A stretch of 64,000 nucleotides of DNA from Candidatus Zhuqueibacterota bacterium (GCA_036351795.1 JAZBPW010000125.1:27171-91170), one strand, 5' to 3'; shown: positions 20,208 to 42,528, counted from the stretch's first letter. Numbers and translations: made by a program. The notes: generated from the sequence alone by a model not told the origin.

Positions 20208-20744
20208 GTGAAGGAAACAGCATCGAGTGCTGGTAAGTCTAAAAAAACAGCGAAGAAAAAAACAACAAGAAAGAAAGATAGAACGTCAGCCGATAAGAAG
20301 GAATTGCAAAAGCTAAAAAAAGAGTATGAGGATTTAAAAGATCAGTATTTGAGGGTTTTGGCCGAGTTCGATAATTACAGAAAGAGAAGGGATAAAGATT
20401 TTATTGCTCTTCGAGAGAGTGCAAACGTTGCATTGATCGAAGAGTTGTTACCCATCATAGATGATTTTGACAGATCTTTTGAAACGATTCAGAAGAAGAG
20501 ATCTTATAAATCCTTTTTCGAAGGCACAAAGCTCATTTTTACGAAATTCAAAGCAGTATTGGAAAGACATGGGCTGGAGGCTCTTGAAGCCAAAGAAGAA
20601 ACCTTTGATCCTGAGCTGCATGAGGCGATCATGCAGGTGGAAAATAATGAGTATGACTCCAATACCGTGCTGGAAGAAATTCAAAAGGGATATAAAATAA
20701 AGGATAAAGTGATCCGTCATTCTAAAGTTGTCGTGAGTAAATAG
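20208..20744 (+). CDS. grpE: Nucleotide exchange factor GrpE
   Basis: YLRVLAEFDNYRKR, LLPIIDDFDR, FDPELHEA, QKGYKIKDKVIR; GTG start. Confidence 0.96.
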   Translation: MKETASSAGKSKKTAKKKTTRKKDRTSADKKELQKLKKEYEDLKDQYLRVLAEFDNYRKRRDKDFIALRESANVALIEELLPIIDDFDRSFETIQKKRSYKSFFEGTKLIFTKFKAVLERHGLEALEAKEETFDPELHEAIMQVENNEYDSNTVLEEIQKGYKIKDKVIRHSKVVVSK

Positions 20745-20771
20745 AATGGTTGTGCATTGTGAAGAGTATAA

Positions 20772-21917
20772 ATGATGAAAAGAGATTATTATGATGTATT
20801 GGGTATTTCAAGAGATGCCAGTGAAAATGAAGTCAAGAAAGCGTATAGAAAGTTAGCAATGCAATATCACCCTGATAAAAATCAGGGGAATAGTGAGGCT
20901 GAAGAAAAATTCAAAGAGGTCTCGGAAGCATATGAAGTATTAAAGGATTCGCAAAAGAGACAGCAGTACGACCGTTTTGGTCATTCGGGTTTAAAGGGAG
21001 GATTTGAAGGTTTTGGTGCCGGCGGATTCGAATTTGATTTGAGCGACGCGCTGCGCACCTTCATGTCAGATTTCGGTTTTGGTGATTTCTTTGGTGGTGG
21101 AGCCTCCAGGTCTGGTGGATCCCGCAAGAAGCGGGGTGGCGATCTTCAGCTGCGTCTCAAGTTATCTTTGGAAGAGATCGCAACAGGCGTAGAAAAGACA
21201 ATTAAGCTGAAACGTTTTGCCGTTTGTGATACGTGTGAAGGAAAAGGTTCCAAGCCGGGATCGACACCGGTATCCTGTCCATATTGCAAGGGCAGTGGTG
21301 AGATTAGAAATGTATCAAGATCGATTTTTGGTCAGTTTGTGAATGTGACAACATGTTCGCAATGCCAGGGGGAGGGGCAGATCATCAGCGATCCTTGTTC
21401 GACATGTGGAGGACAGGGAAGAAAAAAAGAGACCAGCACGCTGAAGGTCAAAATTCCCGCCGGTGTATCGACGGGTAATTATCTGACTTTGAGTGGAGAG
21501 GGACATGTAGGACCTCAAAATGGTCCGCGTGGAAATGCAATCGTCATTATGGAGGAGGCTGATCATCCTCTCTTTGAGCGGCATGGCGATGACATCATAT
21601 ATGATCTGTATCTCAGTTTCGCCCAGGCCGCTCTTGGCGATCAGTTGGAAGTACCCACTCTCAATGGAAAGGCGAAATTAACAGTCGCCCCCGGAACGCA
21701 AGCAGGAAAAATTTTGCGGATGAAGGGAAAGGGTATTCAACATCTGAATAGTCATTCGAAAGGGGATCAGCTGGTTCGGGTCATGGTTTGGACGCCAACC
21801 AAACTGTCTGATAAAGAAAAGCAACTTTTTAAGAAATTGTCTGAATTCGACAGTATCAAACCGCCTGAAGGAGACAAAACGTTTTTTAAAAAGATAAAGG
21901 ATGCTTTGTTCCAGTAA
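20772..21917 (+). CDS. dnaJ: Chaperone DnaJ
   Basis: J domain with HPD, G/F region, four CxxCxGxG zinc motifs, C-terminal domain. Confidence 0.98.
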
Positions 21918-26357: not shown

Positions 26358-27476
26358 ATGAAAACGCAAGGACTAAATACCGAGATCAAAGCCGGCGGCA
26401 AAAAGTTTCATGTTCAGACGAACTACCTTGAGCCCGTGGAAAAGATTATTTCGAGCATCTATGAAGATGGACAAATTCTGTTCAAAAAAGAACGGCATGT
26501 CGACGAAGATAATGTAGAAAAAGCGTTAGAGAATGGAATTAAAGAGCTGCATAAAGAGACAATTGATGATATTGAATTACTCTACTACATATCTGTAAAA
26601 GTAAGTTCCATTCGGCACGCACCATCCAATTTACGCTTAGGCAAGATGTTCTTGCACTACAATCTGATTCAGGATGGCATCGAAGAATTTAAAAATGCAG
26701 TCAATCTCGATCCGGATTTGGTCGATGCGTATAAATACCTCAGCATCTCATATCTGTCTCAGAAAAATTATGAACAGGCATTGGAAACAGTCAATGCTGC
26801 GCTGGAGAAAGAGGATGCCTACCCGGATCTCTATTGCGTGCTTGGGAGAATACAATCTGAGAGAAAAGAGTACAGTGATTCAATCGTTTCGCTTAACAAG
26901 GCGCTGGAACTCAATCCGGATTACGAAGAGGCTGGCATTTATCTGATATACACGCTTCTTAAAAGCGTTGCAGATGAATACGAAGATGAAAGTCTGCCAG
27001 GGCTGGAGAATCGAAAAGAGATCGCAATTTCACAGCTTCAGAGATCAGAAAAATTTATACGCTCGGACAGGTTGATAGAGATCTACGAAATTCTTGAAAA
27101 AGGTGACTTTAATAAAACGTGCAATGTACTTCTTTCTGTGATTGATGAGGATCTGAAAAAAGATATTGGGTATCTGGAAAATGAATTTTATTTGAGATTC
27201 ATGTTTGGTGGTAAGGGAAAAAATGATGAGTTTGTGAAAAAATACGTAGAAGATATTCAGAAGACACTTGCGCAAAATCCACAATATGCAGACTTGAGAA
27301 ACAATCTTGGTATTGCGTACCTCATCCAATGTAGAAATCTATTTTTAAAAGCCCTTGATGAATTTCGCGAGGCGCTCAATATCAACGAGAAATACAATAA
27401 AGCGGAGAGAAATTTGAAGTTGGCCGAGAATGATGGCAAAGGGTTTCTTATCCTGCTCAGAGCCCTTTTGAAATAA
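26358..27476 (+). CDS. Tetratricopeptide repeat protein with an uncharacterised N-terminal domain
   Basis: Repeated TPR units (AVNLDPDLVDAY, ALELNPDYEEA, NPQYADLRNNLGIAY); N-terminal GLNTEIKAGGKKFHVQT. Confidence 0.8.
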   Translation: MKTQGLNTEIKAGGKKFHVQTNYLEPVEKIISSIYEDGQILFKKERHVDEDNVEKALENGIKELHKETIDDIELLYYISVKVSSIRHAPSNLRLGKMFLHYNLIQDGIEEFKNAVNLDPDLVDAYKYLSISYLSQKNYEQALETVNAALEKEDAYPDLYCVLGRIQSERKEYSDSIVSLNKALELNPDYEEAGIYLIYTLLKSVADEYEDESLPGLENRKEIAISQLQRSEKFIRSDRLIEIYEILEKGDFNKTCNVLLSVIDEDLKKDIGYLENEFYLRFMFGGKGKNDEFVKKYVEDIQKTLAQNPQYADLRNNLGIAYLIQCRNLFLKALDEFREALNINEKYNKAERNLKLAENDGKGFLILLRALLK

Positions 27477-28287: not shown

Positions 28288-31200
28288 ATGAGAAGGAAGC
28301 ACCTTTGTGTATTTTTTGCAGCACTGGCAATTCTCATTGGAAATGGGAGTTATGCAACTGCGCAATCTACTGGTTCATTGGTAAATTTATCTGCAAGCGC
28401 CCAGAATGATGGGGCGGGTGCAGAATCGATATATACATTTACTTTCACGACATCGAATAACGGGAATGGCATTGATATCGGTATTCCAGCGAATGGAAAG
28501 ATATTCTTTGAATTTGAAGCCGATTTCGATCTCAGTCAGGTCTCTATTGCGTATGTCGTATCGGGAATGAATGGTGGCTTCGCATCGATCGTCGATACGA
28601 GCGGTACCGGACTGGAGTTGTTTATTACCCGTGATGGAACCGGAACTGCTGTTTCGAGAAATGCCACGGTAAGCATACGTATTGCAAATGTGGTGAACGC
28701 AACTACAGTCGGTGGCTCTTACAGAATCTATGTGAAGACCATGACGAATGCGAACACTCATATCGATCAGGGTACGGTTTCAGGTTTTGATATCAATGCC
28801 GGCCCGATGGATTATATAAGGATCGAGGACCTGCCGGATGGCATCGGTGCTGAGTTTGGATCAGCAACGCTTTCGTCCGGACAGACCCGAAACATGTATG
28901 CGGTTGGTTATGATGCATACGGAAATTATGCCGGCAACATGAATGTGGATTGGAGTGTTGCTGGTGGGATTGGTACGGTCTCTCCAGCTGTCAATTCCAG
29001 CATCACGCTGTTTACGGCGACAATTACAGGGACGGGGAATGTCGTTGCGGATGATGGAAGCAGAAATGTTGACAATACCGGCGAAATCACTGTCAATCCA
29101 GGAACGCTGAGTTATGTGAAGATCGTCGAGGGAGTGGCTGGAGATGGCAGCGAACTCACAACAAAATCGCTCACAACGGACCAGTCGCTTCTCGTACATG
29201 CGGCAGGATATGATCTGTACGATAACTATATCAACGATGTCGCCGTTGACTGGTCTGTGAATGACAGTCTCGGTTCGATCGCACCCGCCACAGGACCACA
29301 GGCAGTGTTCGAACCGGATAAAACAGGTACGGGTCAAATACTTGCTGATCATGCGACGGCAACGGATGATCAGACGGGAGATATTACTGTCAACGCTGGT
29401 GCATTGAAGCGTATCCGCATCGTTGACGGAGCGTCCGGGGACGGTATCGAACTGGGAACAAAGAATCTCTCCACCGGAGATACGCTGACAGTGCATGCAG
29501 CGGGATATGATGCAGATGGAAATTACAGGGAAGATCCGCAGGTGAGCTGGACAGTTGTCAATGATATCGGCACGGTGACCCCTGCGGCCAATTCTGAGAT
29601 AACGAATTTCGTCGCGACACGCATTGGTTCGGGATTTATCAAGGCGACGCATCCCGATGCCGGTAGTGACCTGACAGATGAAATTACAGTAGGCAGTGGA
29701 CAGTTGCATCGGATCCTCATACAGAATAAGCCCGGTGGTATGGGCACGACTGTTCAGGATACTGTCGTATATTTGAATCAGACGACTCGTTTTTACGCGG
29801 CCGGGTATGACGAATATGGTAACTATATTCGGGATATAGATGCTACGTGGAAGCATATCGGGAATTTCAGCTTTCCTGACTCTCTTGTTGCTGATGAAAT
29901 ATCAATAGCACCACAGCAGCTGGGTTTGAGTGGCCGGTTTACCGCAGATAGCGCCGGACTTGTTCCGGATACGACCGGTCTGATACAGGTTGCGGATATC
30001 AGCTACATTCGGATCAGTGAATCAGCAGAGGGCGGCGGTCAAAAGTACGCAGGGACTGTCCTGTCTGCTGATGATTCTGTGACATTGTTCGCTGCGGCAT
30101 ACGATGTCAGCGATAATTTCATTGATACGGTGACAGTAAATTGGGTTGTCGAGAATATGGAGCCGTCGGAGGGAGTCGCGGGGTCCAGGTTTACTTTTTC
30201 GCCCACTGTTGCACATCTGAGCGGAAGAATTATCGCGGACCACGCTTATGCGAGAGATGATTCCACCGGATTGATAACGATAGTGCCGGGCGTTCCTTTC
30301 GGACATTTTCAGATGAATGTCGATTCGACAGAGCTTTCTGCCAATGGCAGCGATCAGACCGGTATTATGTCGGACACAATTTATGATTATGACGGCAATG
30401 TGATTCAGCAAAACAGCCAATTCACTGTTGTTGCCAAACCGTCGAATCTTGGTTTAATGGTGACACCCGCAGATGTAAATAGCACGATAGCGGGGCACCA
30501 AATCAATTCAGATGCGCAGGGGCGCATTTCCTTTACTGTGAGAGCGGGTACTCTGGGGGGCACGGCATATATATCAGTGAACAGCGTAACCGGAAGTGCA
30601 CACGGCGACACGACGATCTCTTTGTCAGGCATCCGTCTGATATCAGTGACAGCAGAAAAGGAACGGGTGACGCGTAATCAGAATGATGTTCAGGTTCAGA
30701 TGCTCGTTAGGAACACGAGTCCCGAACCGGTTGATTCTCTAGAGGCAGATCTTAAATTTAAAACGTCAACCGGAGAGGATCGTCGGTCGGATTATGAGGT
30801 GTTCACAGGTACATTGCCAATACTCAATGGCGGAGAGCAGAGGATCATTGATCTTTCTGTGAATGTGAAAAGCAACGCGTTACTGGATAGCATTTTTATC
30901 GACGGAATTATCCGGGGCGCAACACAATCAAAGACGGTTGTTCAGGATACATCCGCTGCACAAAAGGATAGCTGGATTGTACAGGATCGGCCTATCCTCA
31001 GGATACTTGGCGTCACTGCGCCGGAGCTTGTAGAACAGGGGACGGTAACAACCGTGCGGTTAAGAGTGAAAAATGAAGGTGAGGCAGAGGCAAGCATAAC
31101 AAAGGACAGCCTCATGTTTTTCACGGCTGATCCGTTGATCGATGTAACGGATGAATACAGCCAGATACCGGAACACAGTTATCCCTATGTTTTAGGCTCT

Positions 31201-34200
31201 GATGAGATTCGGGACCTGCGTTACACAGTGACTGTCGGAGCAAATGCCACGCGAGGCGATGTGATTCTGGATGGATTCATCTCTGGCGTCGACGCGAATT
31301 CCGGCGTTGCTGTTTTTGATGATGACGCTGATACCACGGATACCTGGGAAGTAAAACGAATCGGAGAGATTGATATCACTGACTTTGAGGCGCAGCAGGA
31401 TTATGTCATCTCCGGACAGATGACGCCCTGGACCATTAGAATGAAAGTCGAAAACAAGTTTGAAACTGTCAATATGACTCTGGATAGTGCAGCGCTTCAG
31501 TTCTATACCGGAACCCAGGATATTACATCGGAATTTGAAGTAGAAAATCCAACAAAGTTTCAGGAATACGGCAGCACTGAAATTCTATATGCGGATACAA
31601 CAGAAACGCTTGTTTTCAGTGTCAGGAGCACAACGAATCAAAGAATAGGAAATATACGAATCACGGGCTCTGTCTATTTAAGTGATATTGCCCAATCACA
31701 GCTGACGGATTTTTCGGAGACGCAAATCATTGTGAAAACGCCATCGACACTGCAATTTGGGGAAATAAGCGTGTCGCAGACGGAAGTCACTCAAGCACAG
31801 AATAATGACTGGATGTTTACGGCGGCGGTGACAAATATCGGACAGTCAAATATCATTGCCGATCTGTCGTCCGATTCTACATATCTGGTGTTTTCAGGAT
31901 CCGATGATTTCAAGGTGATAAAACCGTCCAAATTTATCCTGTCTCAAAGCAATGTGATTTCGAGCGGAATGACGGATACGCTGCGGTTCATTGTCGATTC
32001 TACCGGTACTGTTCCGGGGCGCAGTGACATCAAGATTCAGGTGCTGTACGCGGATACGTATGCTGCGCAGGATTCCTTCTACGCCATTGATGCAGAAGCC
32101 TATGTCGATGTTCAAACGCCGGCATCGTTGAAAATATTGGACATGGTGAACATTGGGCCGAATTCGCCCTTTGTAAATACAGGACAGGATTTTCAATTGC
32201 GTGTGGATCTTGCCAATGAGGGTGGTGATGGCGCGCATGACATTCAACTGATTGTCAATACAGATGGGCAATCCACAGTAGTGCCAGTTGAGAATATTTC
32301 TATCGATGGTGAAAGCGTTGATTCTATCTTTGTGGATGTGCACGCTGCCGGTGATTGGAGCTATGGGGAAGTATTCTCAGCCGCCATTTCCGGAGCAGTG
32401 GGAGATAACACCAATGAATTTGATGCTGAAATTATCAAAGCAGCCGATGATGACAGCGCACTTGCTATTTTGCAGCGACCGGCAGAGCTCAGTATTACGA
32501 AAGTTATTCCTGAGTTTGGGACAGTGGAAGCGCTGAGCAGAGACTGGAAGATTTCTGTAGCTGTGCGCCGTGACGGGGCTGAGTCTGTCCGGATAAAGGA
32601 ACCGTCAGCCAATGATCTTCGCTTCTTGATCAATAGCGAAGAACAGGACGATTATATCATTATACCCCCTGAAGGATTCAAAAACTCCGGTGACCTGGTG
32701 TTGTCCGGATGGGATGTTGCAGAGGATACGCTGGTGTACACAGTGGATAAAACCGGTCTGCTGGGTGGAGATGCTTTGATAGAGGCGAATCTTGAAGCGA
32801 CGTATTTGAACAATGACAGTATTGTTTTCGTTCAAGAATCAGACTCCGTGTCCGTGGAAACAACTGCCAATCTGTCTATTTTGCAGACAACACCTGTTTG
32901 TCCGCGTCTGGAAGACGGGGTTGGTATTATCAGTACCGAACAGAATTACAGTATCCGCGTAACCCTGCAGAATTCTGGCGAAGAGGCGGTAGATAATGTG
33001 TGGGTGAGCCTTTTGGGACGGGAGACGTACAGTCAGATGCTCGACTCAATATCGGCGAAAGACCAGGCTTCATTGAGTTTCTTTCTTAAGGCGCCGGATA
33101 TCGAAAAGCGCATAGACTATGTCGCTGTCATTGATTCGGGGATCTCGAGGCTCAGCGGACAGCCGGCTCTTATCGGGTCTTCATACGATTCTGAAGCTTC
33201 GGTAGAGATTCAAAACAAGGCGAGGCTCTCTGTACAGGTAAATCCGGAAGATTCTGTAATGACAGTTGGGGTCTTGTCGTCAATGCGATTTAAGGTTGAA
33301 AATCTGGGTACTGCGAAAACAGACAGCCTGGGAAAGGTGATCATCACCATTCCAGAAAATTATAAAGTCATGAATGGAACGATGCTGGATTCAGTAACCA
33401 CAACGATTGATTTCGTCACCGGAAGAGAAGAGACGCTTCGGGTGGTTCCTCCGGGCGTCACCAGTTTCGGAGACCAGTTCAGAATTACAATGAGCACAAC
33501 TCCGAAAGATATGAATACAAATCTTCCGGCATTCGTGGAGAACCATACGGGAACGATCACAGTAAGCACCGTTGCCTCTGATTTCGATTTGTATACGCGG
33601 ATCACCTGGCCGAATGGCGCGAAAGACAACACCGTCTCCACAGAGCAGCTGTTTGATGTGCGGGTAGATTTTGACGTCTCACCAAATATCAAGCGAATAG
33701 AGGCCGGGTTGGATCTGGCAGATGGCTATCAATTCAGTAGTGGTGTTGAATCAATTCAGGTTGCTGAAAATGATGCTGTCGTCTGGCGTGTCAAAGCGCC
33801 TGTTGAAGAGAATTTGTTACCTGTTAATATGATGGTCACCGCTGTCGGCTATACCGGAACGGTGCAATATGAGCTCAGAGACACTATTGGTGTTGTATCC
33901 CAGAAAAAAGCACAACTGACTTTGGGAAGCCTGGGTATCGTATCGCCGTCGCAGACAGATAGTGTGCTGTCGCTTAATCAGGATTTTACGATTAGTACAA
34001 CCGTTGTGAATGATGGATCGGCGCCTGTCGTGGGGACGGGCACGCTGAGGATAGATTTCGGTGCCACAGGGGTGACAACACTGGAGAACCTGTCGAAAAC
34101 TTTTATAACGGGCACTCCGGTTCTCTGGCACGCGACGGCCCCCGGGAATGTGACTTCAAGAGACGATATATCAATATCCATTGAAAGCGTTCCCTTTGAC

Positions 34201-35802
34201 GGCAATACAACGGATTTTGCATCAGGGATTGGAAACAAACGCTCCTTTAACGTGCGTACGATTGAAGGAGGATTCGTCGAAATTGACAGCATTAAGATCG
34301 TCGATCCAATAGGCGCTACGGATCGTGTCCTTTCAACAAATCAGATATTTACAGTAAGGGCATATCTTCACTGGAACAATTGTGATGCATTGCCCACGAT
34401 GAGTATAAAGCTACCGCCTGGATTCCTCTCAGATATTGAGAGTCAAAATCCTGCAGGAGCCGCAAATCAAGGGATTGTCAGCTGGGAAATTTCAGCACCC
34501 TCCGGTGTTGCGGCAAACCAGATGATCTGGACGGAGGCCAGAGCGAATGATATCAATAGTGGAGCTCTGATCATTGATTCTTCGGATAACATCTCTGTCA
34601 GCGTGGTACGACAGGCTGAGATATGGCTCAACGCGGAAATTATCGAGCCGGACGATGCACTGGACGGGGTGGTTTCGACAGGTCAGCATTTCACGATAAA
34701 AGCGAATATTTTGAAATCAGGGGATGCAAGTCTTGAAGATTTTTATACAGCCCGGCTGACGATGCCAGCCGGACTTGGTTATGTTACAACAGATGCGCTG
34801 GATCAGCGTAAATTATATGACCAGACGGTTTACTGGGAGATTACAGCACCATCAGCGGCCAAAGATGCAGATATTTTTGTTATAAAGCTCGTTGAGCCGC
34901 CCAATGACGAGAATACGAACCAGGGAATTCAAGGCGAAGCCCTTATAGAGGATACCCGGGCCATTCCCATTACTACCGAAGAGAAGAGCGTCACGATATC
35001 CGTGTTACCGAAAAAGGCGAATAATTCTGTTGCAAAGGGAGACAGCAGTATCCCCATGCTCTCGCTGGAGATTCTGATCTCGGGAGATGAAGAGTCCAGT
35101 CATGTCCTGTTCAGCGGCATGAAAATTAAGCTGAAGGATAAATATGGGACGGTGATAGTCAATCCGACACACGCGATATCGAGAATATCGATAAAAAACG
35201 CCACCTTTTCGGAAACGATTTCACTTGGTGAAATAGAGAAAATTCCGGAAACAGAGGCAATTGACATCGCCTTTACAAATAAGGACACATTGATACCGGG
35301 TATATCAAATAAAATCGAATTCATGGTCGATATAGCGCCGGATGCTTCTTTGACGGACTTTCGTCTGAGCATCGATTCATTGAGCTATTTCGATATGATG
35401 GATATAGGCTCGGGACAGCGGCCCAGACTGCAACTCACTGACGGTGAGTCGATCGCCTCCGGATTTTCGGTGATTGTGCCACAGGATTTTGAGCGAGCGT
35501 TTTGGAATTATCCAAATCCATTTGGTTCAGACGGCAGAGAATTAACGACAATTCAATACTTCCTTGACCAGGATAGCGATATTGAGATCAGAATTTATAC
35601 ATTATTGGGCGAGCTGGTATGGTCGCGTCAGTATAGCGCGGATGAACCTCAGGGAAAGAGGGGGCTGCACGATGGTGCTACAGCCATCACATGGAATGGC
35701 AGGAATGAAGGTGGCAACACTGTTTTAAATGGCGTATATATCGCCTATTTAAATACGAGCTACGGAAAAACAGTTACAACCAAGATTGCTGTACTTAAAT
35801 AA
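28288..35802 (+). CDS. Giant (2504 aa) secreted multi-Ig-like surface protein with a FlgD-Ig / T9SS-like C-terminal domain
   Basis: Signal peptide; tandem beta-rich modules; C-terminal WNYPNPF...IQYFL...IRIYTLLGELV...TWNGRNEGGNTVLNGVYIAYL...KIAVLK. Confidence 0.85.
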   Translation: MRRKHLCVFFAALAILIGNGSYATAQSTGSLVNLSASAQNDGAGAESIYTFTFTTSNNGNGIDIGIPANGKIFFEFEADFDLSQVSIAYVVSGMNGGFASIVDTSGTGLELFITRDGTGTAVSRNATVSIRIANVVNATTVGGSYRIYVKTMTNANTHIDQGTVSGFDINAGPMDYIRIEDLPDGIGAEFGSATLSSGQTRNMYAVGYDAYGNYAGNMNVDWSVAGGIGTVSPAVNSSITLFTATITGTGNVVADDGSRNVDNTGEITVNPGTLSYVKIVEGVAGDGSELTTKSLTTDQSLLVHAAGYDLYDNYINDVAVDWSVNDSLGSIAPATGPQAVFEPDKTGTGQILADHATATDDQTGDITVNAGALKRIRIVDGASGDGIELGTKNLSTGDTLTVHAAGYDADGNYREDPQVSWTVVNDIGTVTPAANSEITNFVATRIGSGFIKATHPDAGSDLTDEITVGSGQLHRILIQNKPGGMGTTVQDTVVYLNQTTRFYAAGYDEYGNYIRDIDATWKHIGNFSFPDSLVADEISIAPQQLGLSGRFTADSAGLVPDTTGLIQVADISYIRISESAEGGGQKYAGTVLSADDSVTLFAAAYDVSDNFIDTVTVNWVVENMEPSEGVAGSRFTFSPTVAHLSGRIIADHAYARDDSTGLITIVPGVPFGHFQMNVDSTELSANGSDQTGIMSDTIYDYDGNVIQQNSQFTVVAKPSNLGLMVTPADVNSTIAGHQINSDAQGRISFTVRAGTLGGTAYISVNSVTGSAHGDTTISLSGIRLISVTAEKERVTRNQNDVQVQMLVRNTSPEPVDSLEADLKFKTSTGEDRRSDYEVFTGTLPILNGGEQRIIDLSVNVKSNALLDSIFIDGIIRGATQSKTVVQDTSAAQKDSWIVQDRPILRILGVTAPELVEQGTVTTVRLRVKNEGEAEASITKDSLMFFTADPLIDVTDEYSQIPEHSYPYVLGSDEIRDLRYTVTVGANATRGDVILDGFISGVDANSGVAVFDDDADTTDTWEVKRIGEIDITDFEAQQDYVISGQMTPWTIRMKVENKFETVNMTLDSAALQFYTGTQDITSEFEVENPTKFQEYGSTEILYADTTETLVFSVRSTTNQRIGNIRITGSVYLSDIAQSQLTDFSETQIIVKTPSTLQFGEISVSQTEVTQAQNNDWMFTAAVTNIGQSNIIADLSSDSTYLVFSGSDDFKVIKPSKFILSQSNVISSGMTDTLRFIVDSTGTVPGRSDIKIQVLYADTYAAQDSFYAIDAEAYVDVQTPASLKILDMVNIGPNSPFVNTGQDFQLRVDLANEGGDGAHDIQLIVNTDGQSTVVPVENISIDGESVDSIFVDVHAAGDWSYGEVFSAAISGAVGDNTNEFDAEIIKAADDDSALAILQRPAELSITKVIPEFGTVEALSRDWKISVAVRRDGAESVRIKEPSANDLRFLINSEEQDDYIIIPPEGFKNSGDLVLSGWDVAEDTLVYTVDKTGLLGGDALIEANLEATYLNNDSIVFVQESDSVSVETTANLSILQTTPVCPRLEDGVGIISTEQNYSIRVTLQNSGEEAVDNVWVSLLGRETYSQMLDSISAKDQASLSFFLKAPDIEKRIDYVAVIDSGISRLSGQPALIGSSYDSEASVEIQNKARLSVQVNPEDSVMTVGVLSSMRFKVENLGTAKTDSLGKVIITIPENYKVMNGTMLDSVTTTIDFVTGREETLRVVPPGVTSFGDQFRITMSTTPKDMNTNLPAFVENHTGTITVSTVASDFDLYTRITWPNGAKDNTVSTEQLFDVRVDFDVSPNIKRIEAGLDLADGYQFSSGVESIQVAENDAVVWRVKAPVEENLLPVNMMVTAVGYTGTVQYELRDTIGVVSQKKAQLTLGSLGIVSPSQTDSVLSLNQDFTISTTVVNDGSAPVVGTGTLRIDFGATGVTTLENLSKTFITGTPVLWHATAPGNVTSRDDISISIESVPFDGNTTDFASGIGNKRSFNVRTIEGGFVEIDSIKIVDPIGATDRVLSTNQIFTVRAYLHWNNCDALPTMSIKLPPGFLSDIESQNPAGAANQGIVSWEISAPSGVAANQMIWTEARANDINSGALIIDSSDNISVSVVRQAEIWLNAEIIEPDDALDGVVSTGQHFTIKANILKSGDASLEDFYTARLTMPAGLGYVTTDALDQRKLYDQTVYWEITAPSAAKDADIFVIKLVEPPNDENTNQGIQGEALIEDTRAIPITTEEKSVTISVLPKKANNSVAKGDSSIPMLSLEILISGDEESSHVLFSGMKIKLKDKYGTVIVNPTHAISRISIKNATFSETISLGEIEKIPETEAIDIAFTNKDTLIPGISNKIEFMVDIAPDASLTDFRLSIDSLSYFDMMDIGSGQRPRLQLTDGESIASGFSVIVPQDFERAFWNYPNPFGSDGRELTTIQYFLDQDSDIEIRIYTLLGELVWSRQYSADEPQGKRGLHDGATAITWNGRNEGGNTVLNGVYIAYLNTSYGKTVTTKIAVLK
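28807..30291 (+). repeat. Five tandem ~99-aa Ig-like repeats in the giant protein
   Basis: Each unit shows I.I...(G.G)...A.(G/A)YD..(G/D)N(Y/F)...W...TG.I.V; 1485 nt = 5 x 99 codons. Confidence 0.85.
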
Positions 35803-35815
35803 TAAAGGCCGGCGT

Positions 35816-37726
35816 ATGAAAAGACTAATTATATTGATTCTGTTGATGGGGGCATTGGTTTCGAATATCCATGCGGGTGGTGAAGCGGGAACGCTTCAGA
35901 TATTCAGTCGGGGAGGAGTCGGAGCCAGAGCCATGGCACTGGGTAATGCCTACGTGGCAATGCCTTTTGATGCAACGGCGATTTACTGGAATCCGGCAGG
36001 CATGGAATATGTTCAGCATAAATCAGTGAGCCTGTTCTATACGAATCTGTTGGAGTCTTCTCCATATAATTTCATTGCCTATGTCCATCCGACCGTTAAC
36101 ATCGGGACGTTTGGATTGGGCGCCATTCGCGTTGGATCCGGAGATATCAAGAGAACTGATTCGCAAAATGTTGACGAAGGCACTTTTTCGTATAACGAGA
36201 GTCAATTCTTATTCTCCTATGCGAAACGCCTACCGGCACACCTCGCTGCGGGTATCAATCTGAAGCTCCACTATTTTTATATGGATGGTTTCTCCGACAC
36301 CGGTGTCGGCGCGGATATCGGTCTATTGTACAGACCTTCATTTTCCAGTGCTTTGTTGCGCAATATATCATTCGGAGTGAATCTGCACAATATCCTGCAG
36401 CCTCAGCTGAAGCCGCTTGAATCAACGGATGTTCATCCGTACATCGTCAAATTTGGCCTGGCCAAGCCGTTGCTTTTTGGCGATGGTGGTAACAAAATGT
36501 CTCTTTTCATGGATCTGGAGCAAGGTGGGGGCAACAGTCCGTTTATGTTTCATTTGGGCAGTGAATACGTTTTCCAGGAGCGGGCCATGCTGCGGGCAGG
36601 TATCAACAATGGATATATTGCATTTGGCGCCGGAGTCAGCTATGGCATGTACCAACTGGACTATTCATACGGGAAGATGGCGCAGCATGAACTGAACGCG
36701 AGTCATCGTATATCACTGACATTTGACTTTGGAATGTCCCGATCGGATATGATGCGTATTGCCGAGGAGAAAAAGCTTCGGATCATCGAAGAACAGGTTG
36801 CCAAGAAGATCGAATGGGATCGTAATGAGAAAATCGCCCGCGCCATGGAAAACGGAAAGAGATACATGCAGGATGAGGATTATGTGCGCGCCCAAAGAGA
36901 GTTTAATATCGTGATCGGTTTTGAAAACGAGATTCCGGAAGCGTTGGAAATCAAGGAAGCGAAGGAACTGTACGCGCTCGCCACGGAAAAATACGAGGAC
37001 AAGACAAAGAAGGCTATTGCGGAGATACAGGCGAAAGATGCGCTGGACAGGAAGAAGAAGGAAGACCAGATATATATCAATGATCATTTCAAACGCGGAC
37101 TTGCCTTTTATGAGAACGAAGAGTATGAACGGGCAATTGGTGAATGGAATCGAATTCTCGATCGTGATCCCGATAACGAGTTGGCCAAAGAACATATCAA
37201 AAAGGCGCAGGTCGATTATCAGGCAAAGGTATATACGCTGATCAATAGAGCTGACGCATTCGGTAAGCAGGGTAAATATGTCGAAGCGATCAATATTCTG
37301 AACCAGGCGATCGGTTTGAATCCGGATGATCAGACCATCAAACAGGCGATTACGAGAAAGCGGTCTGCATATGAAAACAAGCTCAGTTTCCACGACCTCT
37401 ATGAACAGGGTCAGAATTATCAGCTACGAAAAGAGTATAAGAAAGCGATGGAAGCGTACGAACGGGCCCTGGCAATAGAACCAGATAATACGTTGGCTAA
37501 AAAGAGATACGAAGAAGTGAAGGCGCGTGCATTTGCACGAAGAGAACCCATGACGGAAGAGGTCAGATCAAAGTTTCTTCAAAGTCTTCGTTTAATTAAT
37601 CAGGGTAACTATAACGATGCATTGAAGATATTGGAAGAGATTCAGAAAATTCAGCCATATAACAAAGACATTCTTGATGGAATTGACACGGCCAGGGAAT
37701 ATCTGGAGAGACAAAACAGACAGTAG
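35816..37726 (+). CDS. PorV/PorQ-family outer-membrane beta-barrel fused to a C-terminal TPR region
   Basis: ATG 35816 gives a clean signal peptide; GVGARAMALGNAYVAMPFDATAIYWNPAG, GADIGLLY, last strand HRISLTFDF, then coiled coil and multiple TPRs. Confidence 0.82.
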   Translation: MKRLIILILLMGALVSNIHAGGEAGTLQIFSRGGVGARAMALGNAYVAMPFDATAIYWNPAGMEYVQHKSVSLFYTNLLESSPYNFIAYVHPTVNIGTFGLGAIRVGSGDIKRTDSQNVDEGTFSYNESQFLFSYAKRLPAHLAAGINLKLHYFYMDGFSDTGVGADIGLLYRPSFSSALLRNISFGVNLHNILQPQLKPLESTDVHPYIVKFGLAKPLLFGDGGNKMSLFMDLEQGGGNSPFMFHLGSEYVFQERAMLRAGINNGYIAFGAGVSYGMYQLDYSYGKMAQHELNASHRISLTFDFGMSRSDMMRIAEEKKLRIIEEQVAKKIEWDRNEKIARAMENGKRYMQDEDYVRAQREFNIVIGFENEIPEALEIKEAKELYALATEKYEDKTKKAIAEIQAKDALDRKKKEDQIYINDHFKRGLAFYENEEYERAIGEWNRILDRDPDNELAKEHIKKAQVDYQAKVYTLINRADAFGKQGKYVEAINILNQAIGLNPDDQTIKQAITRKRSAYENKLSFHDLYEQGQNYQLRKEYKKAMEAYERALAIEPDNTLAKKRYEEVKARAFARREPMTEEVRSKFLQSLRLINQGNYNDALKILEEIQKIQPYNKDILDGIDTAREYLERQNRQ

Positions 37727-37752: not shown

Positions 37753-40700
37753 GTGTTAAAATCTGTAATCAAAGATGAAATAAAAGTCCCGGGGCATATC
37801 GATTATCTAGGTGAATTGCGAAATTTTGTCACCAAGACGGGTAAAAAATATAATTTTTCAGACAGTATTGTGAATGCGTTCAAACTTGCCATTGATGAAG
37901 CCGCGACTAACATCATCAAGCATGCGTATCGGGACATCGAAGGTGTAATCACGATGCGAATACTGGTCAAGAAAAGAAGCATGACAGTGATTCTGATTGA
38001 TCAGGGAAAATTTTTCGATCCGGCCAGAGTTCAGGCGCCCGATCTTCAGCGTTATGTTGATATCGGTAAAAAGGGAGGATTGGGCATATTTATTATGCGC
38101 AAGCTCATTGATGAGATCGATTACCGGCATACGGAAGAAGGAAATGAACTGCGGCTGACCAAATACCGGGATGGCGATTTCAGAAAAATGACGGATGATG
38201 ATGAGCTTCCCTCCGCATCCGCGCTTTCACTGAGTCTTAAAACGAGATATTCGCTCTTTGCCGCCGGTATACTGACGATCCTGATGAGTATTGGCTATAT
38301 CTATTTTTACTTCAGCCATGGACAGCAGACGCTAAACGAAGTGATCTCTGCGGCAAAGACAAATCTGGAGATGATTGCCAGAACAGTCGTTGCGCCCGGA
38401 GACACGACTCTGAATACAGTCTTTATCAATACGACGATACATGAAGCAATTGACCTGGATGAGCATGAAGAGGTCTACAGGATAATCATTACAGACAATA
38501 AAGATCTGACACTATTCAGCAGTGATGATGATATTTTTGGCACCTATTATCAGATACCTGAAGACCACAGGAAAGTGGAAAAATCTGTGTTTTTCTTCGA
38601 AGACAAGTCTTCCAATACCAAACTCTATGATGTTGTAAGCCCCATTCGTGCCGATAATCGGCAGCAACTCGGAGAAATTCATCTCCAGATCCACAATGAT
38701 TTTGTGAAGGATGAAATTGGTGCTTTGAGAGCAAAGGATCTTCGTCTGGCCATGTTGATTCTGGCTATCGGATACTTTGGGATCGCTTTATTGATCTATA
38801 TTGTGATGAACCCTTTTCGCAAGCTCTCCGACTGGGTGAAGCAGCTTGGGCACGGTGAGGTACAGGATGAGATCGATTTCGACACTGGCAATGAGCTGGG
38901 CGAGATAGCAAAAGCATTCAGCGAGATTACGGATAAATTCAGACGATCTCAGGAAAATCTGGCAGAGCAGGAGAGGCTCCAGAAGGAGATGCAGCTGGCT
39001 CAGGATATTCAGCAGACACTGCTTCCAAAACATATCCCTGAACTTGAAGGCTACATGATTTCTTCGCACTATGAAGCAGCCATGGAGGTCGGAGGAGACT
39101 ACTACGACTTTGTTGACGTCGACAAAGACTCGATCGGTATCGTGGTCGCTGATGTGTCGGGGAAGGGTGTTCCTGGTTCACTCATAATGACGATGATCCG
39201 TACCGCGCTCAGAACAGAGGCCCGGGGTGTGAAGTCTGCATCAGAAGTTCTGGCACGATTGAATGACTTTGTTGTCAAGGACATGAAGAAGGGCATGTTC
39301 GTCACGATCTTCTATGTGATCATAGATTCGAAGAGAAGGCGAGTGAATTACGCGAGCGCCGGACATAATCCCATGATCCTTTATCGGCAAAGCACTGAGA
39401 AAACCTATTATCTCAATCCGAAGGGTTTTCCCGTAGGGATTTCGTTGCCGGATCAGGAGTTGTTCAAAAAATCCATAGAATCGGACACCATTCAGCTCGC
39501 TGAAGATGATATTCTGCTCATCTATACCGATGGTATAACAGAAGCCATGAATTCACACAGAGAGTTGTTCGGTGAGGAGCGTCTGCTGGAGACGATTAGG
39601 AGGAACGCGGAATTACAGGCACAGCCGTTCATAGAAAAAGTGAAGGACGAGATCCATTCCTTTACTGAGGGATTTGAACAGAACGACGATATCACCATTG
39701 TGGCGATCAAAGAGAAGAGTTCTCCGGAAAAAATTGAATTATCACGCGCGCAAAATGCGCACCAGATGATCAATTCTACGGGTATCAGCATCAAGGATGC
39801 CTGTGAGGAGGCGGGAATTACCACATATGCCTATTACAATAAATACAAAAAAATCTTTGAAGAGGAAGGGATCGAAGCCTATTCTATTGATGATACAATC
39901 TCTGTGGAAGCGAAACATTTGAGCATCGAAGAAAAAACAAAGATCTATGACATCATCAAGACACATCCGGAGTATGGCGCAAAACGAATCAGTGAAGAAC
40001 TGCAATCGGAACGCTATGGAAGCACAGTGATCAACGAGAGTCGCATCTATGAAGAACTCGTCCGAAGCCGCCTGAATACACGCCAGCTAAGAGAGGCATA
40101 TATCGCAAGGGCCGGCAAGAAGAAGCGAATGAAACCGCCTGGAACACCAATGCTGACACTGGATGGACGCATTATACTCGATCGCGACTATTACGAACAT
40201 TATGAGGAAGAGAGACCGGAGAAGAGAGCGCCGGAAAAATTGAAGGAAAAGAAAAAGATAGATGCCGAGAAGACGGCAGCAGAGGATTCCGGCCAGGTAG
40301 CAGCAGAGGAGATATCGGGAGACCCGAACGAGAATTTCGACGAGGACTTTTACATTGAGAGCCTGATGACGGTTCCTTTGGAAAATCTCCTCGATAAGAG
40401 CAACAAGAAAAAGTCTGCTCCGAAAGTTGAAAAGACAGAAGATGAAGAAGTTGAAGAGGTGGATGAGAAAGCTGGGGGTGACGAAGAGATGGTTGAACCG
40501 GAACGCCAGGCAGGGGAAGAAGTGACTGCGGACGATACGACTGAAACTGAGTCGTCTGGCGAGGTTCCGGCGGATGATAATTTGAGTAATGAATATTCTG
40601 AAATAGATGAGGGGGATGAAGAATTCATTGATGCAATCGAAGAGAAGATCATCGCGGAGCTCGATGAAAAGGCCGGGCAGGATCTGTTTGATGATGATAT

Positions 40701-41706
40701 AGAGATGGTTGATCATGAGCAGAAGAAGAAAGAACCGGATGACATTGAAGAGCCGGACACACAGGGACTTGAAGAAGATGTGATTGACGATGAAACCGAC
40801 CTTGATCAGGAGTTCAGCTTCAAAGATGTCTGGGAAGACGATGATGAAGGTGTTGAAGAACTCAGTGACAGCGAAGATGTTGCAAACCTTGATAGCATCG
40901 ACGAAGATGTCGAGATGAATCTTGGTAATGCTGAAGATTCACAGGATATCATGGATGAAATTCTCAATGAGGATGAGATCACATTTGAAAACCTGGCGGA
41001 AGAGGACAATTTCGACCGGTCTTCATACGATAAAGATGACAATAATGGTTCGTATGAGGAAAAAGGTAAAAAGCGGGGGAAAAAGTCAAAGAAAAAGAAA
41101 AAAAGTGATGCCGGGGATGACGATCAGAAATCTGGTAATGAGGAAAAAGCCGAAGATGACGGGTTTACTTTTGGCACATTACTCGATGAAATTGAGCATG
41201 ATCTGTCGTATATCGATGACGATATCGGTTTTGATGAGGACGACCTGGTTGATTCAAATAAAATGGTTATCTCGGGCGAAAATATAGATATACAGGACAA
41301 TATCCAGTCGATGGATAAGAGAGAACTTGATCAGGCATTACAGAACGACAATTTATTATCCGGCCTGAAGCATTATAAAAATGATGATTTTGAAAAGGCG
41401 ATCGATGAGTTCAAAAAGGTTCTGGAACTCTATCCGGACTTCAAAGAGGTTCACACTATCATGGGAAACGCCTATTTTAAGAATGACATGAGCGATGAAG
41501 CATTGAAGGAATACATGCGCGTAATCGAAATTGATCCCTATGACGTAGATGCTTATGAAAATCTCGGTGTGATCTATGCCAATCAGGGAGAATATACAAA
41601 GGCGATTGAAGAATGGAAAAAACTTCTGGAAATTGATCCCGAGCGAGGTGATATAAAAGATAATTTGGAGCGCGCGCAGAATATTATTGACGGAGACAAA
41701 GGCTAA
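37753..41706 (+). CDS. Membrane-bound hybrid: RsbW-type Ser kinase + sensor + HAMP + SpoIIE/PP2C phosphatase + HTH + acidic tract + TPR
   Basis: LAIDEAATNIIKHAY, IDQG..FDP, GGLGIFIMRKL; two TM segments; HAMP; VGGDYYD, ADVSGKG, SAGH, YTDGITEA, DDIT; D/E-rich tract; C-terminal TPRs. GTG start. Confidence 0.88.
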   Translation: MLKSVIKDEIKVPGHIDYLGELRNFVTKTGKKYNFSDSIVNAFKLAIDEAATNIIKHAYRDIEGVITMRILVKKRSMTVILIDQGKFFDPARVQAPDLQRYVDIGKKGGLGIFIMRKLIDEIDYRHTEEGNELRLTKYRDGDFRKMTDDDELPSASALSLSLKTRYSLFAAGILTILMSIGYIYFYFSHGQQTLNEVISAAKTNLEMIARTVVAPGDTTLNTVFINTTIHEAIDLDEHEEVYRIIITDNKDLTLFSSDDDIFGTYYQIPEDHRKVEKSVFFFEDKSSNTKLYDVVSPIRADNRQQLGEIHLQIHNDFVKDEIGALRAKDLRLAMLILAIGYFGIALLIYIVMNPFRKLSDWVKQLGHGEVQDEIDFDTGNELGEIAKAFSEITDKFRRSQENLAEQERLQKEMQLAQDIQQTLLPKHIPELEGYMISSHYEAAMEVGGDYYDFVDVDKDSIGIVVADVSGKGVPGSLIMTMIRTALRTEARGVKSASEVLARLNDFVVKDMKKGMFVTIFYVIIDSKRRRVNYASAGHNPMILYRQSTEKTYYLNPKGFPVGISLPDQELFKKSIESDTIQLAEDDILLIYTDGITEAMNSHRELFGEERLLETIRRNAELQAQPFIEKVKDEIHSFTEGFEQNDDITIVAIKEKSSPEKIELSRAQNAHQMINSTGISIKDACEEAGITTYAYYNKYKKIFEEEGIEAYSIDDTISVEAKHLSIEEKTKIYDIIKTHPEYGAKRISEELQSERYGSTVINESRIYEELVRSRLNTRQLREAYIARAGKKKRMKPPGTPMLTLDGRIILDRDYYEHYEEERPEKRAPEKLKEKKKIDAEKTAAEDSGQVAAEEISGDPNENFDEDFYIESLMTVPLENLLDKSNKKKSAPKVEKTEDEEVEEVDEKAGGDEEMVEPERQAGEEVTADDTTETESSGEVPADDNLSNEYSEIDEGDEEFIDAIEEKIIAELDEKAGQDLFDDDIEMVDHEQKKKEPDDIEEPDTQGLEEDVIDDETDLDQEFSFKDVWEDDDEGVEELSDSEDVANLDSIDEDVEMNLGNAEDSQDIMDEILNEDEITFENLAEEDNFDRSSYDKDDNNGSYEEKGKKRGKKSKKKKKSDAGDDDQKSGNEEKAEDDGFTFGTLLDEIEHDLSYIDDDIGFDEDDLVDSNKMVISGENIDIQDNIQSMDKRELDQALQNDNLLSGLKHYKNDDFEKAIDEFKKVLELYPDFKEVHTIMGNAYFKNDMSDEALKEYMRVIEIDPYDVDAYENLGVIYANQGEYTKAIEEWKKLLEIDPERGDIKDNLERAQNIIDGDKG

Positions 41707-41713: not shown

Positions 41714-41742
41714 TTGACTTTTATCAATTTTTCTATTATATT
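41714..41742 (+). promoter_or_regulatory. Internal sigma70 promoter upstream of the STAS gene
   Basis: TTGACT (41714-41719)-N17-TATATT (41737-41742). Confidence 0.6.
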
Positions 41743-41791: not shown

Positions 41792-42466
41792 ATGGAAGGA
41801 ATCCAACTTTCTGTAAAGCAGACAGGAGCGAACAATGATATATCAATCATAAAAGTTGGTGGATATATAGATACAACGACATCTGCAGAGCTTGAGCACT
41901 CATTGGATACATTATTAAAATCGAACAATTACAATATTATTATTGACCTGGAAAACGTTGACTATATCAGCAGCGCCGGTTGGGGAATTTTCATAAGCGA
42001 ATTGAAGGGGATTCGCGACAGGGGAGGCGACCTAAAACTCGTTAAAATGATGCCGGATGTATACGAGGTCTTTGAGCTGCTCGAATTTCATTATATTCTT
42101 AAGGCATTTGATTCCATAGAAGATGCGATAGCTGACTTTGACAAGCGAAAAGTATTTGATGATTCAAGAGCATATGCGGACTCAGATGTGCCCATGCAAG
42201 GGACTGAGATACAGGAAAAGGTGGGGAGAGACTCTTCGGACCAGCCTCATGAATTACATGACAAGGCGATGTCCGTGGATGACAAAATCAGAAAGCTGGT
42301 CATGGAAAATCCGGAAATAAGCAGTATAACCATGTTCCAGAGGTTGAAGTCAGCCAGGTTCGGAAATCAGAAAATCGGGTACTTTCAATTGTTGAAAGTA
42401 TTGAAGAAGATGAATTTGAATTCCAAAAAGAAGAGAGTGGAATTTTTCAAAAAGCAGAACGCCTGA
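41792..42466 (+). CDS. STAS (anti-sigma-factor antagonist) protein with a C-terminal HTH-like extension
   Basis: GGYIDTTTS, IIIDLENVDYISSAGWG (phospho-acceptor Ser motif), GGDLKL, VYEVFELL; ~100 extra C-terminal residues. Confidence 0.9.
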   Translation: MEGIQLSVKQTGANNDISIIKVGGYIDTTTSAELEHSLDTLLKSNNYNIIIDLENVDYISSAGWGIFISELKGIRDRGGDLKLVKMMPDVYEVFELLEFHYILKAFDSIEDAIADFDKRKVFDDSRAYADSDVPMQGTEIQEKVGRDSSDQPHELHDKAMSVDDKIRKLVMENPEISSITMFQRLKSARFGNQKIGYFQLLKVLKKMNLNSKKKRVEFFKKQNA

Positions 42467-42496
42467 TAGAGGTATTTACATATACGTTATTCGAAA

Positions 42497-42528
42497 GGAG
42501 TCGGTTGTTTCAGCTGACTCCTTTTTTT
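42497..42528 (+). terminator. Rho-independent terminator ending the giant-protein operon
   Basis: GGAGTCGGTTG-TTT-CAGCTGACTCC (11-bp stem with two G-U pairs) followed by T7. Confidence 0.85.

Follow-up and report, generated by a model that had tools for sequence, protein, structure and literature searches.

A kinase–phosphatase fusion on a membrane sensor of the Zhuqueibacterota, read as a probable partner-switching controller of an adjoining STAS protein

Can a single membrane sensor carry both a kinase and the phosphatase that opposes it, and what would the two act on? This question is raised by one gene in a 64,000-nucleotide stretch of DNA from Candidatus Zhuqueibacterota bacterium (GCA_036351795.1, JAZBPW010000125.1:27171-91170; this whole stretch is the window, and positions are counted from its first letter). 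A preliminary description of the window had proposed a bifunctional switch with a long acidic tract and a C-terminal tail of tetratricopeptide repeats (TPRs). We provisionally name the protein KinPhos and number its residues according to the translation of its open reading frame (ORF). In the reading that we consider probable, KinPhos sets the phosphorylation state of the STAS protein encoded next to it, predicted at Ser61, and so would be a one-polypeptide partner-switching controller under an envelope signal. Observed are the identities of the domains, their catalytic motifs, the topology, the conservation and the synteny; the substrate, the regulated arm, the signal and the output are inferred.

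Domain calls were made using a Pfam scan, and the coordinates of the parts (Table 1) were confirmed by translation. The GTG start codon is correct, because homologue alignments begin at residue 1. From the N terminus, KinPhos consists of an RsbW-type Ser kinase, a first transmembrane helix (TM1), a periplasmic Cache/PDC domain, a second transmembrane helix (TM2), a HAMP domain, a PP2C phosphatase, a two-part helix-turn-helix (HTH) module, an acidic tract and three TPRs. The Pfam, hydropathy and homologue scans thus bear out the layout first described, in which the periplasmic domain had no family assignment. Hydropathy indicates exactly two transmembrane helices, and their peaks match the positions proposed earlier (about 38230-38315 and 38745-38810). 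Lys and Arg residues lie on the N-terminal side of TM1 and on the C-terminal side of TM2, and therefore the kinase and everything after TM2 are assigned to the cytoplasm and the segment between the helices to the periplasm.

The periplasmic domain shows approximately 20% sequence conservation among homologues. In KinPhos itself the match to sCache_3_2 is weak (E 0.15), whereas relatives score 29.8-53.8 bits against a cut-off of 28.4. An AlphaFold2 (AF2) model of aa 186-336 has a pLDDT of 90.7 and a pTM of 0.82, and a Foldseek search with it returned 19 PDB matches at E<=1e-3, among them the sensor domains of WalK, KinD, CitA, DcuS and Tlp3. Based on the model, the domain is predicted to be a single Cache/PDC fold. 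The HAMP domain directly follows TM2; its score is marginal in KinPhos (PF00672, 25.1 bits versus a cut-off of 25) and higher in relatives (32-52 bits).

Such an arrangement could be an artifact in which separate kinase, phosphatase and TPR genes were joined by misassembly or by a sequencing frameshift. The source genome is a 75%-complete metagenome-assembled genome (MAG) in 195 contigs, and kinase, phosphatase and STAS genes do occur unfused elsewhere, as RsbU-RsbW-STAS operons at two loci (L016 and L061). Against this stands the conservation of the architecture. A database search retrieved more than 115 full-length homologues of 1150-1475 aa with 55-75% identity over aa 1-700. Every one of them has the kinase, the PP2C and the TPRs, and those with names are mostly from candidate division KSB1 / Zhuqueibacterota. 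Of 167 genomes sampled from the phylum, 161 have the gene by a profile search with the HTH region, among them all 105 of high quality; the six genomes without it are 70-85% complete. The ORFs in the 161 species genomes are about 1,080-1,790 aa long where contig ends do not cut them. The alignment is continuous and ungapped over every domain junction of KinPhos, and the same collinear order recurs in the more than 115 independent assemblies. Thus, the fusion artifact that the preliminary description had named as the danger to its own reading is exceedingly improbable, and we exclude it and treat KinPhos as authentic.

Are both enzymes likely to work? The kinase domain exceeds the curated HATPase_c_2 cut-off (PF13581, 86.3 bits versus 27.4) and aligns to SpoIIAB and to Bacillus subtilis RsbW (6m36, E 6e-15), with its N-box (E49/N53/H57), G1 box (D83-Q-G85) and G2 box (G107-G108-L-G110) in register with the latter. 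The SpoIIE/PP2C match spans aa 458-653 (PF07228, 177.9 bits versus a cut-off of 25), and the domain aligns to RssB (3eq2), Rv1364c (3ke6) and SiaA (6k4e). Its Asp motifs had been called intact, and they are all present (GGD449, AD467VSGKG, TD593G and D645-D646-IT); we take D449, D467, D593 and D645/D646 to be the SpoIIE-type metal ligands. In an alignment of 12 relatives with 27-37% identity (A3), the motif positions of both enzymes are among the few invariant columns, and therefore both active sites appear to be under selection. To judge from these motifs, both catalytic centres are intact. KinPhos is not assigned to a named orthologue group by NCBIfam. The RsbW models are missed (NF003144 / TIGR01924, 67.9 versus 145 and 60 versus 155 bits), as are the SiaA model (NF038263, 67.3 versus 700 bits) and the SpoIIE equivalog cut-off. 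Across NCBIfam, no model had its cut-off reached, and no curated family name was found.

The two enzymes are attached to the sensor in different ways. The tether from the kinase to TM1 (about 25 aa, aa 141-165) is poorly conserved, with 19% identity and gaps over aa 141-160. In contrast, the connector from HAMP to PP2C is ungapped and 79-83% identical over aa 381-420. From this difference we infer that the phosphatase is the mechanically coupled arm. The kinase, on its loose 25-residue tether, would phosphorylate the STAS protein, probably constitutively, and the PP2C, rigidly linked through TM2, HAMP and the connector to the Cache domain, would dephosphorylate it in the right sensor state. 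A regulated phosphatase opposing a largely constitutive kinase matches the Bacillus paradigms. The bifunctional switch first proposed, with kinase and phosphatase at opposite cytoplasmic ends of the sensor, draws support from the intact and invariant catalytic centres, the topology, the adjoining STAS gene and the STAS domains fused to relatives, and it is the best reading of KinPhos that its sequence allows.

The predicted substrate is encoded directly downstream. We compared 15 KSB1 loci with the full-length gene; in one (L012) the contig ends before the downstream gene, and in the remaining 14 of 14 the STAS gene directly follows KinPhos. The STAS protein of the window is above the cut-offs of PF01740 (63.3 versus 22.6 bits, E 2e-17) and TIGR00377 (65.9 versus 53.45 bits). 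Its predicted phospho-Ser61 (nt 41972-41974) aligns without gaps with the phosphorylated Ser of SpoIIAA, RsbV and TM1442, and the motif VDYISSAGWGIF is virtually invariant across phyla. At all loci examined the STAS gene beside KinPhos keeps this acceptor Ser. A basic tail of about 60 aa, with a net charge of +4 to +11, ends the protein. This tail is homologous to the second half of the HTH module of KinPhos (HTH2, aa 721-786; BLASTP E 6e-4, hhalign probability 96% and E 3e-9). The tail is older than the HTH of KinPhos; it is present in lineages where KinPhos stops right after the PP2C (L025 and L027).

To place KinPhos among its relatives we made an exhaustive, profile-free search with aa 1-460 as the query. 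The proteins with collinear matches were 637-2253 aa long, and identity fell as low as 26-30%. The minimal form (637-681 aa) has HATPase_c_2, sCache_3_2, HAMP and SpoIIE domains (P0199, P0212, P0225, P0233 and P0263), and a second form of 819-965 aa adds the transposase-type HTH to this core (P0164, P0182 and L039). In a third, of up to 2253 aa, the core is followed by a long, acidic-leaning tail and TPRs, and the HTH is not scored at E<=0.001 (P0155 and P0163). Genome records with the collinear core carry the labels Ignavibacteria, Eisenbacteria, Latescibacterota, Calditrichia, Zixibacteria and KSB1 (MAGs), together with a few doubtful labels. The fourth form comes from two loci of Latescibacterota type (L029:6950-11353, 1468 aa, and L036:6947-11206, 1420 aa), in which three STAS domains follow the HTH in place of the acidic tract and the TPRs; the free STAS proteins near these fusions are without the basic tail. 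The three-STAS fusion is, as read from these sequences, Rosetta-stone evidence for STAS as the partner.

The earlier concern that the architecture might be both common and characterised proved correct in its first half. It is near-universal in the sampled genomes of one phylum and its core occurs in several others, but no characterised example was found. Full-text literature searches returned no account of this architecture, nor of partner switching in KSB1.

Outside KSB1 the gene neighbourhoods point to possible outputs. The cassette of giant protein, barrel/TPR protein, KinPhos and STAS recurs in non-KSB1 lineages. There, a GGDEF gene comes after the STAS gene at five loci (L025, L026, L033, L039 and L043), with a split variant at L041 in which a separate kinase gene lies between, and a Poly_export gene comes after it at L026 and L033. 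A gene for a ParA/MinD-like ATPase directly follows KinPhos at L026, L029, L036, L039, L040 and L043, only where KinPhos bears the HTH, and directly precedes the STAS gene at L026, L039 and L043; KSB1 has no adjacent copy. Searches of the window's own genome for orthologues of the GGDEF and ParA-like genes that are linked to the cassette in other phyla found only generic domain matches elsewhere. The same genome does encode a paralogue of the tailed STAS protein on another contig (C35:8720-15026, minus strand; 248 aa, 37% identity over the full length), with the motif VNYISSAGWG and the basic tail in common. It directly precedes Poly_export/SLBB (Wza-like), Wzz-GNVR-AAA_31 (Wzc-like), epimerase-like and Bac_transf genes, and these four make up a cluster for polysaccharide export.

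The output would be delivered by the basic HTH-like tail of the STAS protein and need not involve a sigma factor. It is most likely the control of surface polysaccharide, adhesion or cyclic di-GMP (c-di-GMP), to judge from the gene neighbourhoods and from the analogous systems SypE/SypA, SiaABCD and HsbR/HsbA/HsbD. Since about 30 loci have no sigma gene within the cassette, the STAS genes of relatives adjoin GGDEF and polysaccharide-export genes, and the C35 paralogue heads an export cluster, a sigma factor is probably not the output, or at least not the sole one. The alternative is that the membrane-tethered kinase domain holds an alternative sigma factor that dephosphorylated STAS displaces, as in RsbW/RsbV/sigma-B. 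The kinase is closest to RsbW both in the alignment given above and as the top NCBIfam match, the kinase domains of HsbR and CrsR bind RpoS (PMC6482189), and dimerisation through HAMP would pair two kinase domains as in RsbW dimers. The missing sigma gene, the failure to reach the RsbW equivalog cut-off, the conserved output-like tail of the STAS protein and the neighbours of the STAS genes in relatives all argue the other way, and we regard such a classical anti-sigma switch as unlikely.

Several points weigh against our reading of KinPhos as a controller of its STAS neighbour with a non-sigma output. In KSB1 the cassette is followed by obg and dprA and by no GGDEF or polysaccharide gene, so that the output is extrapolated there from other lineages. 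The genome encodes six STAS proteins, four HATPase_c_2 kinases and four PP2Cs, and cross-talk is therefore possible. The kinase could sequester a sigma factor in addition to its proposed role, and the link of the Cache domain to the surface protein and the barrel is drawn from synteny alone.

A further contig of this genome (C47:5423-9307 and 19122-19607) encodes a stand-alone RsbW-like kinase of 161 aa that is 50% identical to the kinase domain of KinPhos. Also encoded on this contig are a HAMP-adenylate/guanylate cyclase and a second PorV-like barrel protein, of 755 aa, that ends in a long tail of TPRs.

What, then, is the C-terminal half of KinPhos for? The HTH region (aa 655-812) is among the best-conserved parts of the protein (56-87% identity). 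In KinPhos itself HTH_32 and HTH_21 match weakly and below cut-off (aa 697-767). In a scan of 16 homologues HTH_28 matched 14 and HTH_32 matched 12, and HTH_23 (best E 1.7e-8) and HTH_21 matched 13 each. Positions 8-122, the N-terminal part, of the NCBIfam IS481-transposase model align to aa 672-792 (E 4e-6), a segment that KinPhos shares with the N-terminal paired-like HTH of IS481/IS3/IS630-type transposases. KinPhos is not itself a member of the IS481 family: it scores 26.5 bits versus a cut-off of 224, and the Pfam scan found no rve domain. Unlike these transposases, it has no rve/DDE domain and carries the module within a signalling protein, and the second half of the module also forms the STAS tail. 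The AF2 model of the region has two helical bundles on a floppy linker (pLDDT 77.5). A Foldseek search of this model against PDB folds gave nothing significant (best E 0.59), the top matches being TnsB, Pax paired domains and the RED subdomain of Sleeping Beauty, which are in keeping with the theme but are no proof, and a profile search of the region against PDB sequences gave no meaningful match (best E 0.09). We read aa 655-812 as a domesticated two-part transposase module that is putatively DNA-binding.

The very acidic tract that follows had been placed at about 40200-41280 and is confirmed with slightly wider limits (Table 1). Among 117 full-length homologues it is 281-542 aa long (median 361), has 17-40% Asp/Glu and carries a net charge of -29 to -178. 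The gap-rich sequences are only 4-29% identical, and therefore the presence and composition of the tract are kept and its sequence is not. Composition and low conservation suggest that it is disordered. Three short conserved hydrophobic islands within it look like binding motifs, and the TPRs that follow are 43-74% identical among homologues. In other branches the acidic tails are even longer (600-900 aa, 25-40% Asp/Glu).

A basic patch that the preliminary description had singled out is indeed present in KinPhos, but it is not conserved. Only 11 of the 117 homologues have a comparable patch, and we rejected it as a conserved functional element. Its lysine stretch KKSKKKKK (41079-41102, plus strand) is encoded by a microrepeat of four GAAAAA units, which fits a lineage-specific slippage product. 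Given this run and the scarcity of matches, we consider the stretch idiosyncratic. An origin of the whole tract from tandem repeats was also rejected, as only a 9-nt repeat of 2.3 copies and the GAAAAA run were found.

Two roles had been suggested for the tract, namely a DNA mimic that autoinhibits the HTH and a disordered scaffold. Under the first, the HTH binds DNA and KinPhos is itself a regulated transcription factor. The module derives from the DNA-binding part of a transposase and is well conserved, long tails occur only in HTH-bearing proteins, and HTH2 and the region of the KPPG motif are basic (+4 and +5). However, the first half of the module (HTH1) is net acidic, some HTH-bearing homologues are without an acidic tract (L014 with 900 aa, L028 and L030), the tract contains conserved short hydrophobic motifs, and at L029 and L036 three STAS domains take its place. 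Acidic DNA-mimic tails with an autoinhibitory role are exemplified by region 1.1 of sigma-70 and the tail of HMGB1, and the known tails of this kind fall far short of the 280-540 aa of the tract. We find KinPhos as a DNA-mimic-controlled transcription factor quite improbable, and autoinhibition as the main role of the tract is weakly disfavoured. The disordered scaffold fits the observations on the tract better, as a ranking and not a demonstration.

A more specific form of scaffold is that the acidic tract, the TPRs and HTH2, the part shared with the STAS tail, keep the basic STAS tail near the catalytic domains and so are equivalent to a STAS fusion. The opposite charges of tail and tract agree with this, as does the fact that the free STAS proteins are tailless where STAS is fused (L029 and L036). 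The more negative the tract, the more positive the tail tends to be (rho -0.47), although at p 0.087 (n 14, without correction for phylogeny) the trend falls short of significance, and at L025 and L027 the STAS protein has its tail while KinPhos has no tail of any kind. Such tethering of the substrate is a possible but doubtful account. For the C-terminal platform as a whole the data favour, again in ranking and short of demonstration, a partner-recruiting scaffold over a DNA mimic. Within the kinase–phosphatase reading given above, the IS481-like HTH, the acidic tract and the TPRs would form a lineage-specific platform whose probable task is to recruit or retain partners, perhaps including the STAS protein.

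Table 1 Positions of KinPhos, its parts and the neighbouring features within the window
Feature	Position (nt)	Strand	Basis or remark
TPR protein, 372 aa	26358..27476	+	homologous to TPR genes of cassettes in other phyla; TPR matches
Giant surface protein, 2504 aa, probable type IX secretion system (T9SS) type-A C-terminal sorting domain	28288..35802	+	Por_Secre_tail near threshold; synteny
PorV/PorQ-family outer-membrane barrel, C-terminal extension of ~330 aa with TPRs	35786..37726	+	NF033709; TPR matches; synteny
KinPhos gene	37753..41706	+	single unbroken ORF, 1317 aa, GTG start
RsbW/SpoIIAB-type GHKL Ser kinase domain, aa 16-137	37798..38163	+	PF13581 (HATPase_c_2), E 2e-24
TM1, aa 166-187	38248..38313	+	hydropathy peak
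Periplasmic single Cache/PDC sensor domain (predicted), aa 188-328	38314..38736	+	AF2 model; Foldseek matches; sCache_3_2 scores of relatives
TM2, aa 329-355	38737..38817	+	hydropathy peak of 2.56
HAMP (aa 347-389) and conserved helical connector to the phosphatase (aa 390-430)	38791..39042	+	PF00672; ungapped connector
RsbU/SpoIIE/SiaA-type PP2C phosphatase, aa 431-655	39043..39717	+	PF07228, E 3e-52
Two-part transposase-type HTH module, aa 658-790 (HTH1 ~aa 658-705, HTH2 ~aa 725-788)	39724..40122	+	Pfam across homologues; IS481 model; AF2
Near-invariant motif KPPGTPMLTLDG after the HTH region, aa 794-805	40132..40167	+	invariant K, PPG, P, T, L and G columns (16 homologues)
Acidic low-conservation tract, aa 813-1195	40189..41337	+	383 aa, 37% D/E, 11% K/R, net -99
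Conserved island ESLMTVPLENLLDK in tract (ESL...P.E.LL.K), aa 869-882	40357-40398	+	homologue conservation
Conserved island SF.D in tract, aa 1022-1025		+	homologue conservation
Basic patch KGKKRGKKSKKKKK, aa 1104-1117	41062-41103	+	comparable patch in 11/117 homologues
Conserved island TFGTLLDEIEHDLSY in tract (sF.DLL..IE..I), aa 1139-1153	41167-41211	+	homologue conservation
Three C-terminal TPRs, aa 1196-1305	41338..41667	+	TPR_1/TPR_2, E about 1e-19
Sigma-70-type promoter of the STAS gene (TTGACT, 17 nt, TATATT)	41714..41742	+	10/12 consensus matches
STAS protein, 224 aa: STAS aa 14-112, variable linker, basic HTH_21-like tail aa 158-221 (nt 42263-42454)	41792..42466	+	PF01740; TIGR00377
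Intrinsic-terminator-like hairpin closing the cassette, 15 bp stem and T run	42493..42525	+	follows the STAS gene

The neighbours of KinPhos are as constant as its domains. In 15 of 15 KSB1 loci the gene upstream encodes a PorV/PorQ-like barrel with TPRs, preceded by a giant surface protein where the contig reaches that far. The barrel of the window satisfies the PorV/PorQ family cut-off (NF033709, 141.8 versus 90 bits) and misses the equivalog cut-offs of both PorV and PorQ. The giant protein comes close to the T9SS type-A sorting domain (TIGR04183, 21.2 bits versus a cut-off of 23, aa 2408-2501), and its last 100 aa recur in many proteins encoded by the same genome. A 42%-identical copy of its N-terminal domain (aa 43-186) lies on the same contig outside the window (C125:4740-5153, minus strand), and a paralogous giant protein with 28% identity over 1675 aa is found on contig C44 (C44:51658-57447). 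The TPR protein at 26358-27476 has TPR homologues that are encoded after STAS at L025 and L027 and, at L029 and L036, between ParA and STAS, and we count it as part of the wider cassette because its homologues accompany the cassette in other phyla. Its match to the N-terminal domain of RomY is weak and stays below threshold (32 versus 50 bits).

The sigma-70-type element TTGAC(T/A), 16-17 nt, TATATT is present in 13 of 13 KinPhos-STAS intergenic regions inspected (L001-L013 and L019 loci), with GGAG and ATGGAA some 35-45 nt past it. These regions, of 86 to about 280 nt, are otherwise unalignable, and because the element recurs in them we assign to the STAS gene a conserved promoter of its own within the cassette. 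No hairpin as strong as the terminator-like one that closes the cassette lies between its genes.

The genes hrcA-grpE-dnaJ (19152-21917 of the window, plus strand) lie 16 kb upstream of KinPhos, and at another locus (L023:8103-13606) a minimal KinPhos homologue is directly followed by hrcA-grpE-dnaK-dnaJ. Both may be coincidence.

The signal read by the Cache domain would be extracytoplasmic and probably has to do with the two proteins whose genes lie just before KinPhos in every relative, the PorV/PorQ-like barrel and the giant surface protein of T9SS type. A bolder extension is that the conserved genes together make a single device for signalling across the envelope in bacteria of the FCB group. 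Its parts would be the TPR protein, the giant surface protein, the barrel, whose TPRs would reach into the periplasm as a long arm, the Cache/HAMP kinase–phosphatase and the STAS-HTH protein. The state of the giant surface protein would be relayed through the arm of the barrel to the Cache domain, and a push and pull at Ser would release the STAS-HTH effector on DNA or on the polysaccharide or c-di-GMP machinery. We put this forward as a rather unlikely, speculative model. If it were true, it would be cell-surface signalling like FecA-FecR-FecI in logic, built from partner-switching parts.

How does KinPhos compare with known systems? The closest analogue is SypE of Vibrio fischeri, a kinase-REC-PP2C fusion (PMC3610818), and the closest relatives of the phosphatase are of the SiaA/RsbU type. 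In SypE, as in KinPhos, an RsbW-like Ser kinase (about 140 aa) is N-terminal and the PP2C C-terminal, with the regulatory module between them (PMC3610818, PMC8256260). It acts on the single-domain STAS protein SypA, and its output is polysaccharide and biofilm formation, below the level of syp transcription (PMC3610818, PMC8256260). KinPhos likewise has kinase, regulatory module and PP2C in one chain next to a STAS gene. At its centre SypE has a REC domain that is cytoplasmic and takes its input from a phosphorelay, whereas the centre of KinPhos consists of TM1, the periplasmic Cache domain, TM2 and HAMP, and Pfam found no Response_reg match in it. SypE has no HTH, acidic tract or TPRs and SypA no HTH-like tail, unlike KinPhos and its STAS neighbour.

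SiaA of Pseudomonas aeruginosa is a membrane HAMP-PP2C protein (PMC7647112, PMC8457831) and the second-best NCBIfam match of KinPhos (aa 333-652). In that system the kinase SiaB and the switch protein SiaC control the diguanylate cyclase SiaD (PMC7647112, PMC8457831), a likeness to the cassette relatives that place a GGDEF gene right after STAS. Kinase and phosphatase are, however, separate proteins in the Sia system, and the KSB1 cassette has no adjacent GGDEF gene. In HsbR/HsbA of P. aeruginosa, CrsR/CrsA of Shewanella and Rv1364c of Mycobacterium tuberculosis, a PP2C and an RsbW-type kinase are fused and act on STAS, as proposed for KinPhos, and Rv1364c (3ke6) also fuses STAS, as the proteins of L029 and L036 do. 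These proteins have the reversed order sensor-PP2C-kinase (REC-PP2C-kinase in HsbR/CrsR; PMC6482189) and are cytoplasmic with REC or PAS inputs. KinPhos is a membrane protein with the kinase before the PP2C and, in the Pfam scan, no REC domain, and thus does not belong to the HsbR/CrsR family. The Bacillus systems RsbU-RsbV-RsbW and SpoIIE-SpoIIAA-SpoIIAB have homologous domains and share the phosphorylated Ser with KinPhos/STAS; they consist of separate proteins that control a sigma factor, whereas KinPhos is fused and its cassette has no sigma gene. The HenR/STAS module of Anabaena is a further precedent (PMC13555669).

A fused kinase–phosphatase acting on a STAS switch is thus already known from SypE, HsbR/CrsR and Rv1364c, and KinPhos adds no new principle. 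New are its topology, with a catalytic domain before TM1, the transposase-derived HTH common to the controller and its predicted substrate, the very long polyacidic linker with TPRs, and its near-universality in the sampled KSB1 genomes with a conserved coupling to a T9SS-type surface-protein cassette.

Partner switching is a major signalling device of bacteria and is increasingly found to control biofilm, polysaccharide, c-di-GMP and other outputs that are not sigma factors. In KinPhos it takes a compact form: the kinase occupies one cytoplasmic end of a single extracytoplasmic sensor and the phosphatase the other, and in several FCB phyla the gene is firmly linked to those of a giant surface protein and a T9SS-type barrel. 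As a bacterial signalling protein that contains both a domesticated transposase HTH and a polyacidic linker of great length, it is also a natural example of each. For a poorly known, uncultivated phylum, KinPhos offers a testable entry to how the envelope or the surroundings may be sensed.

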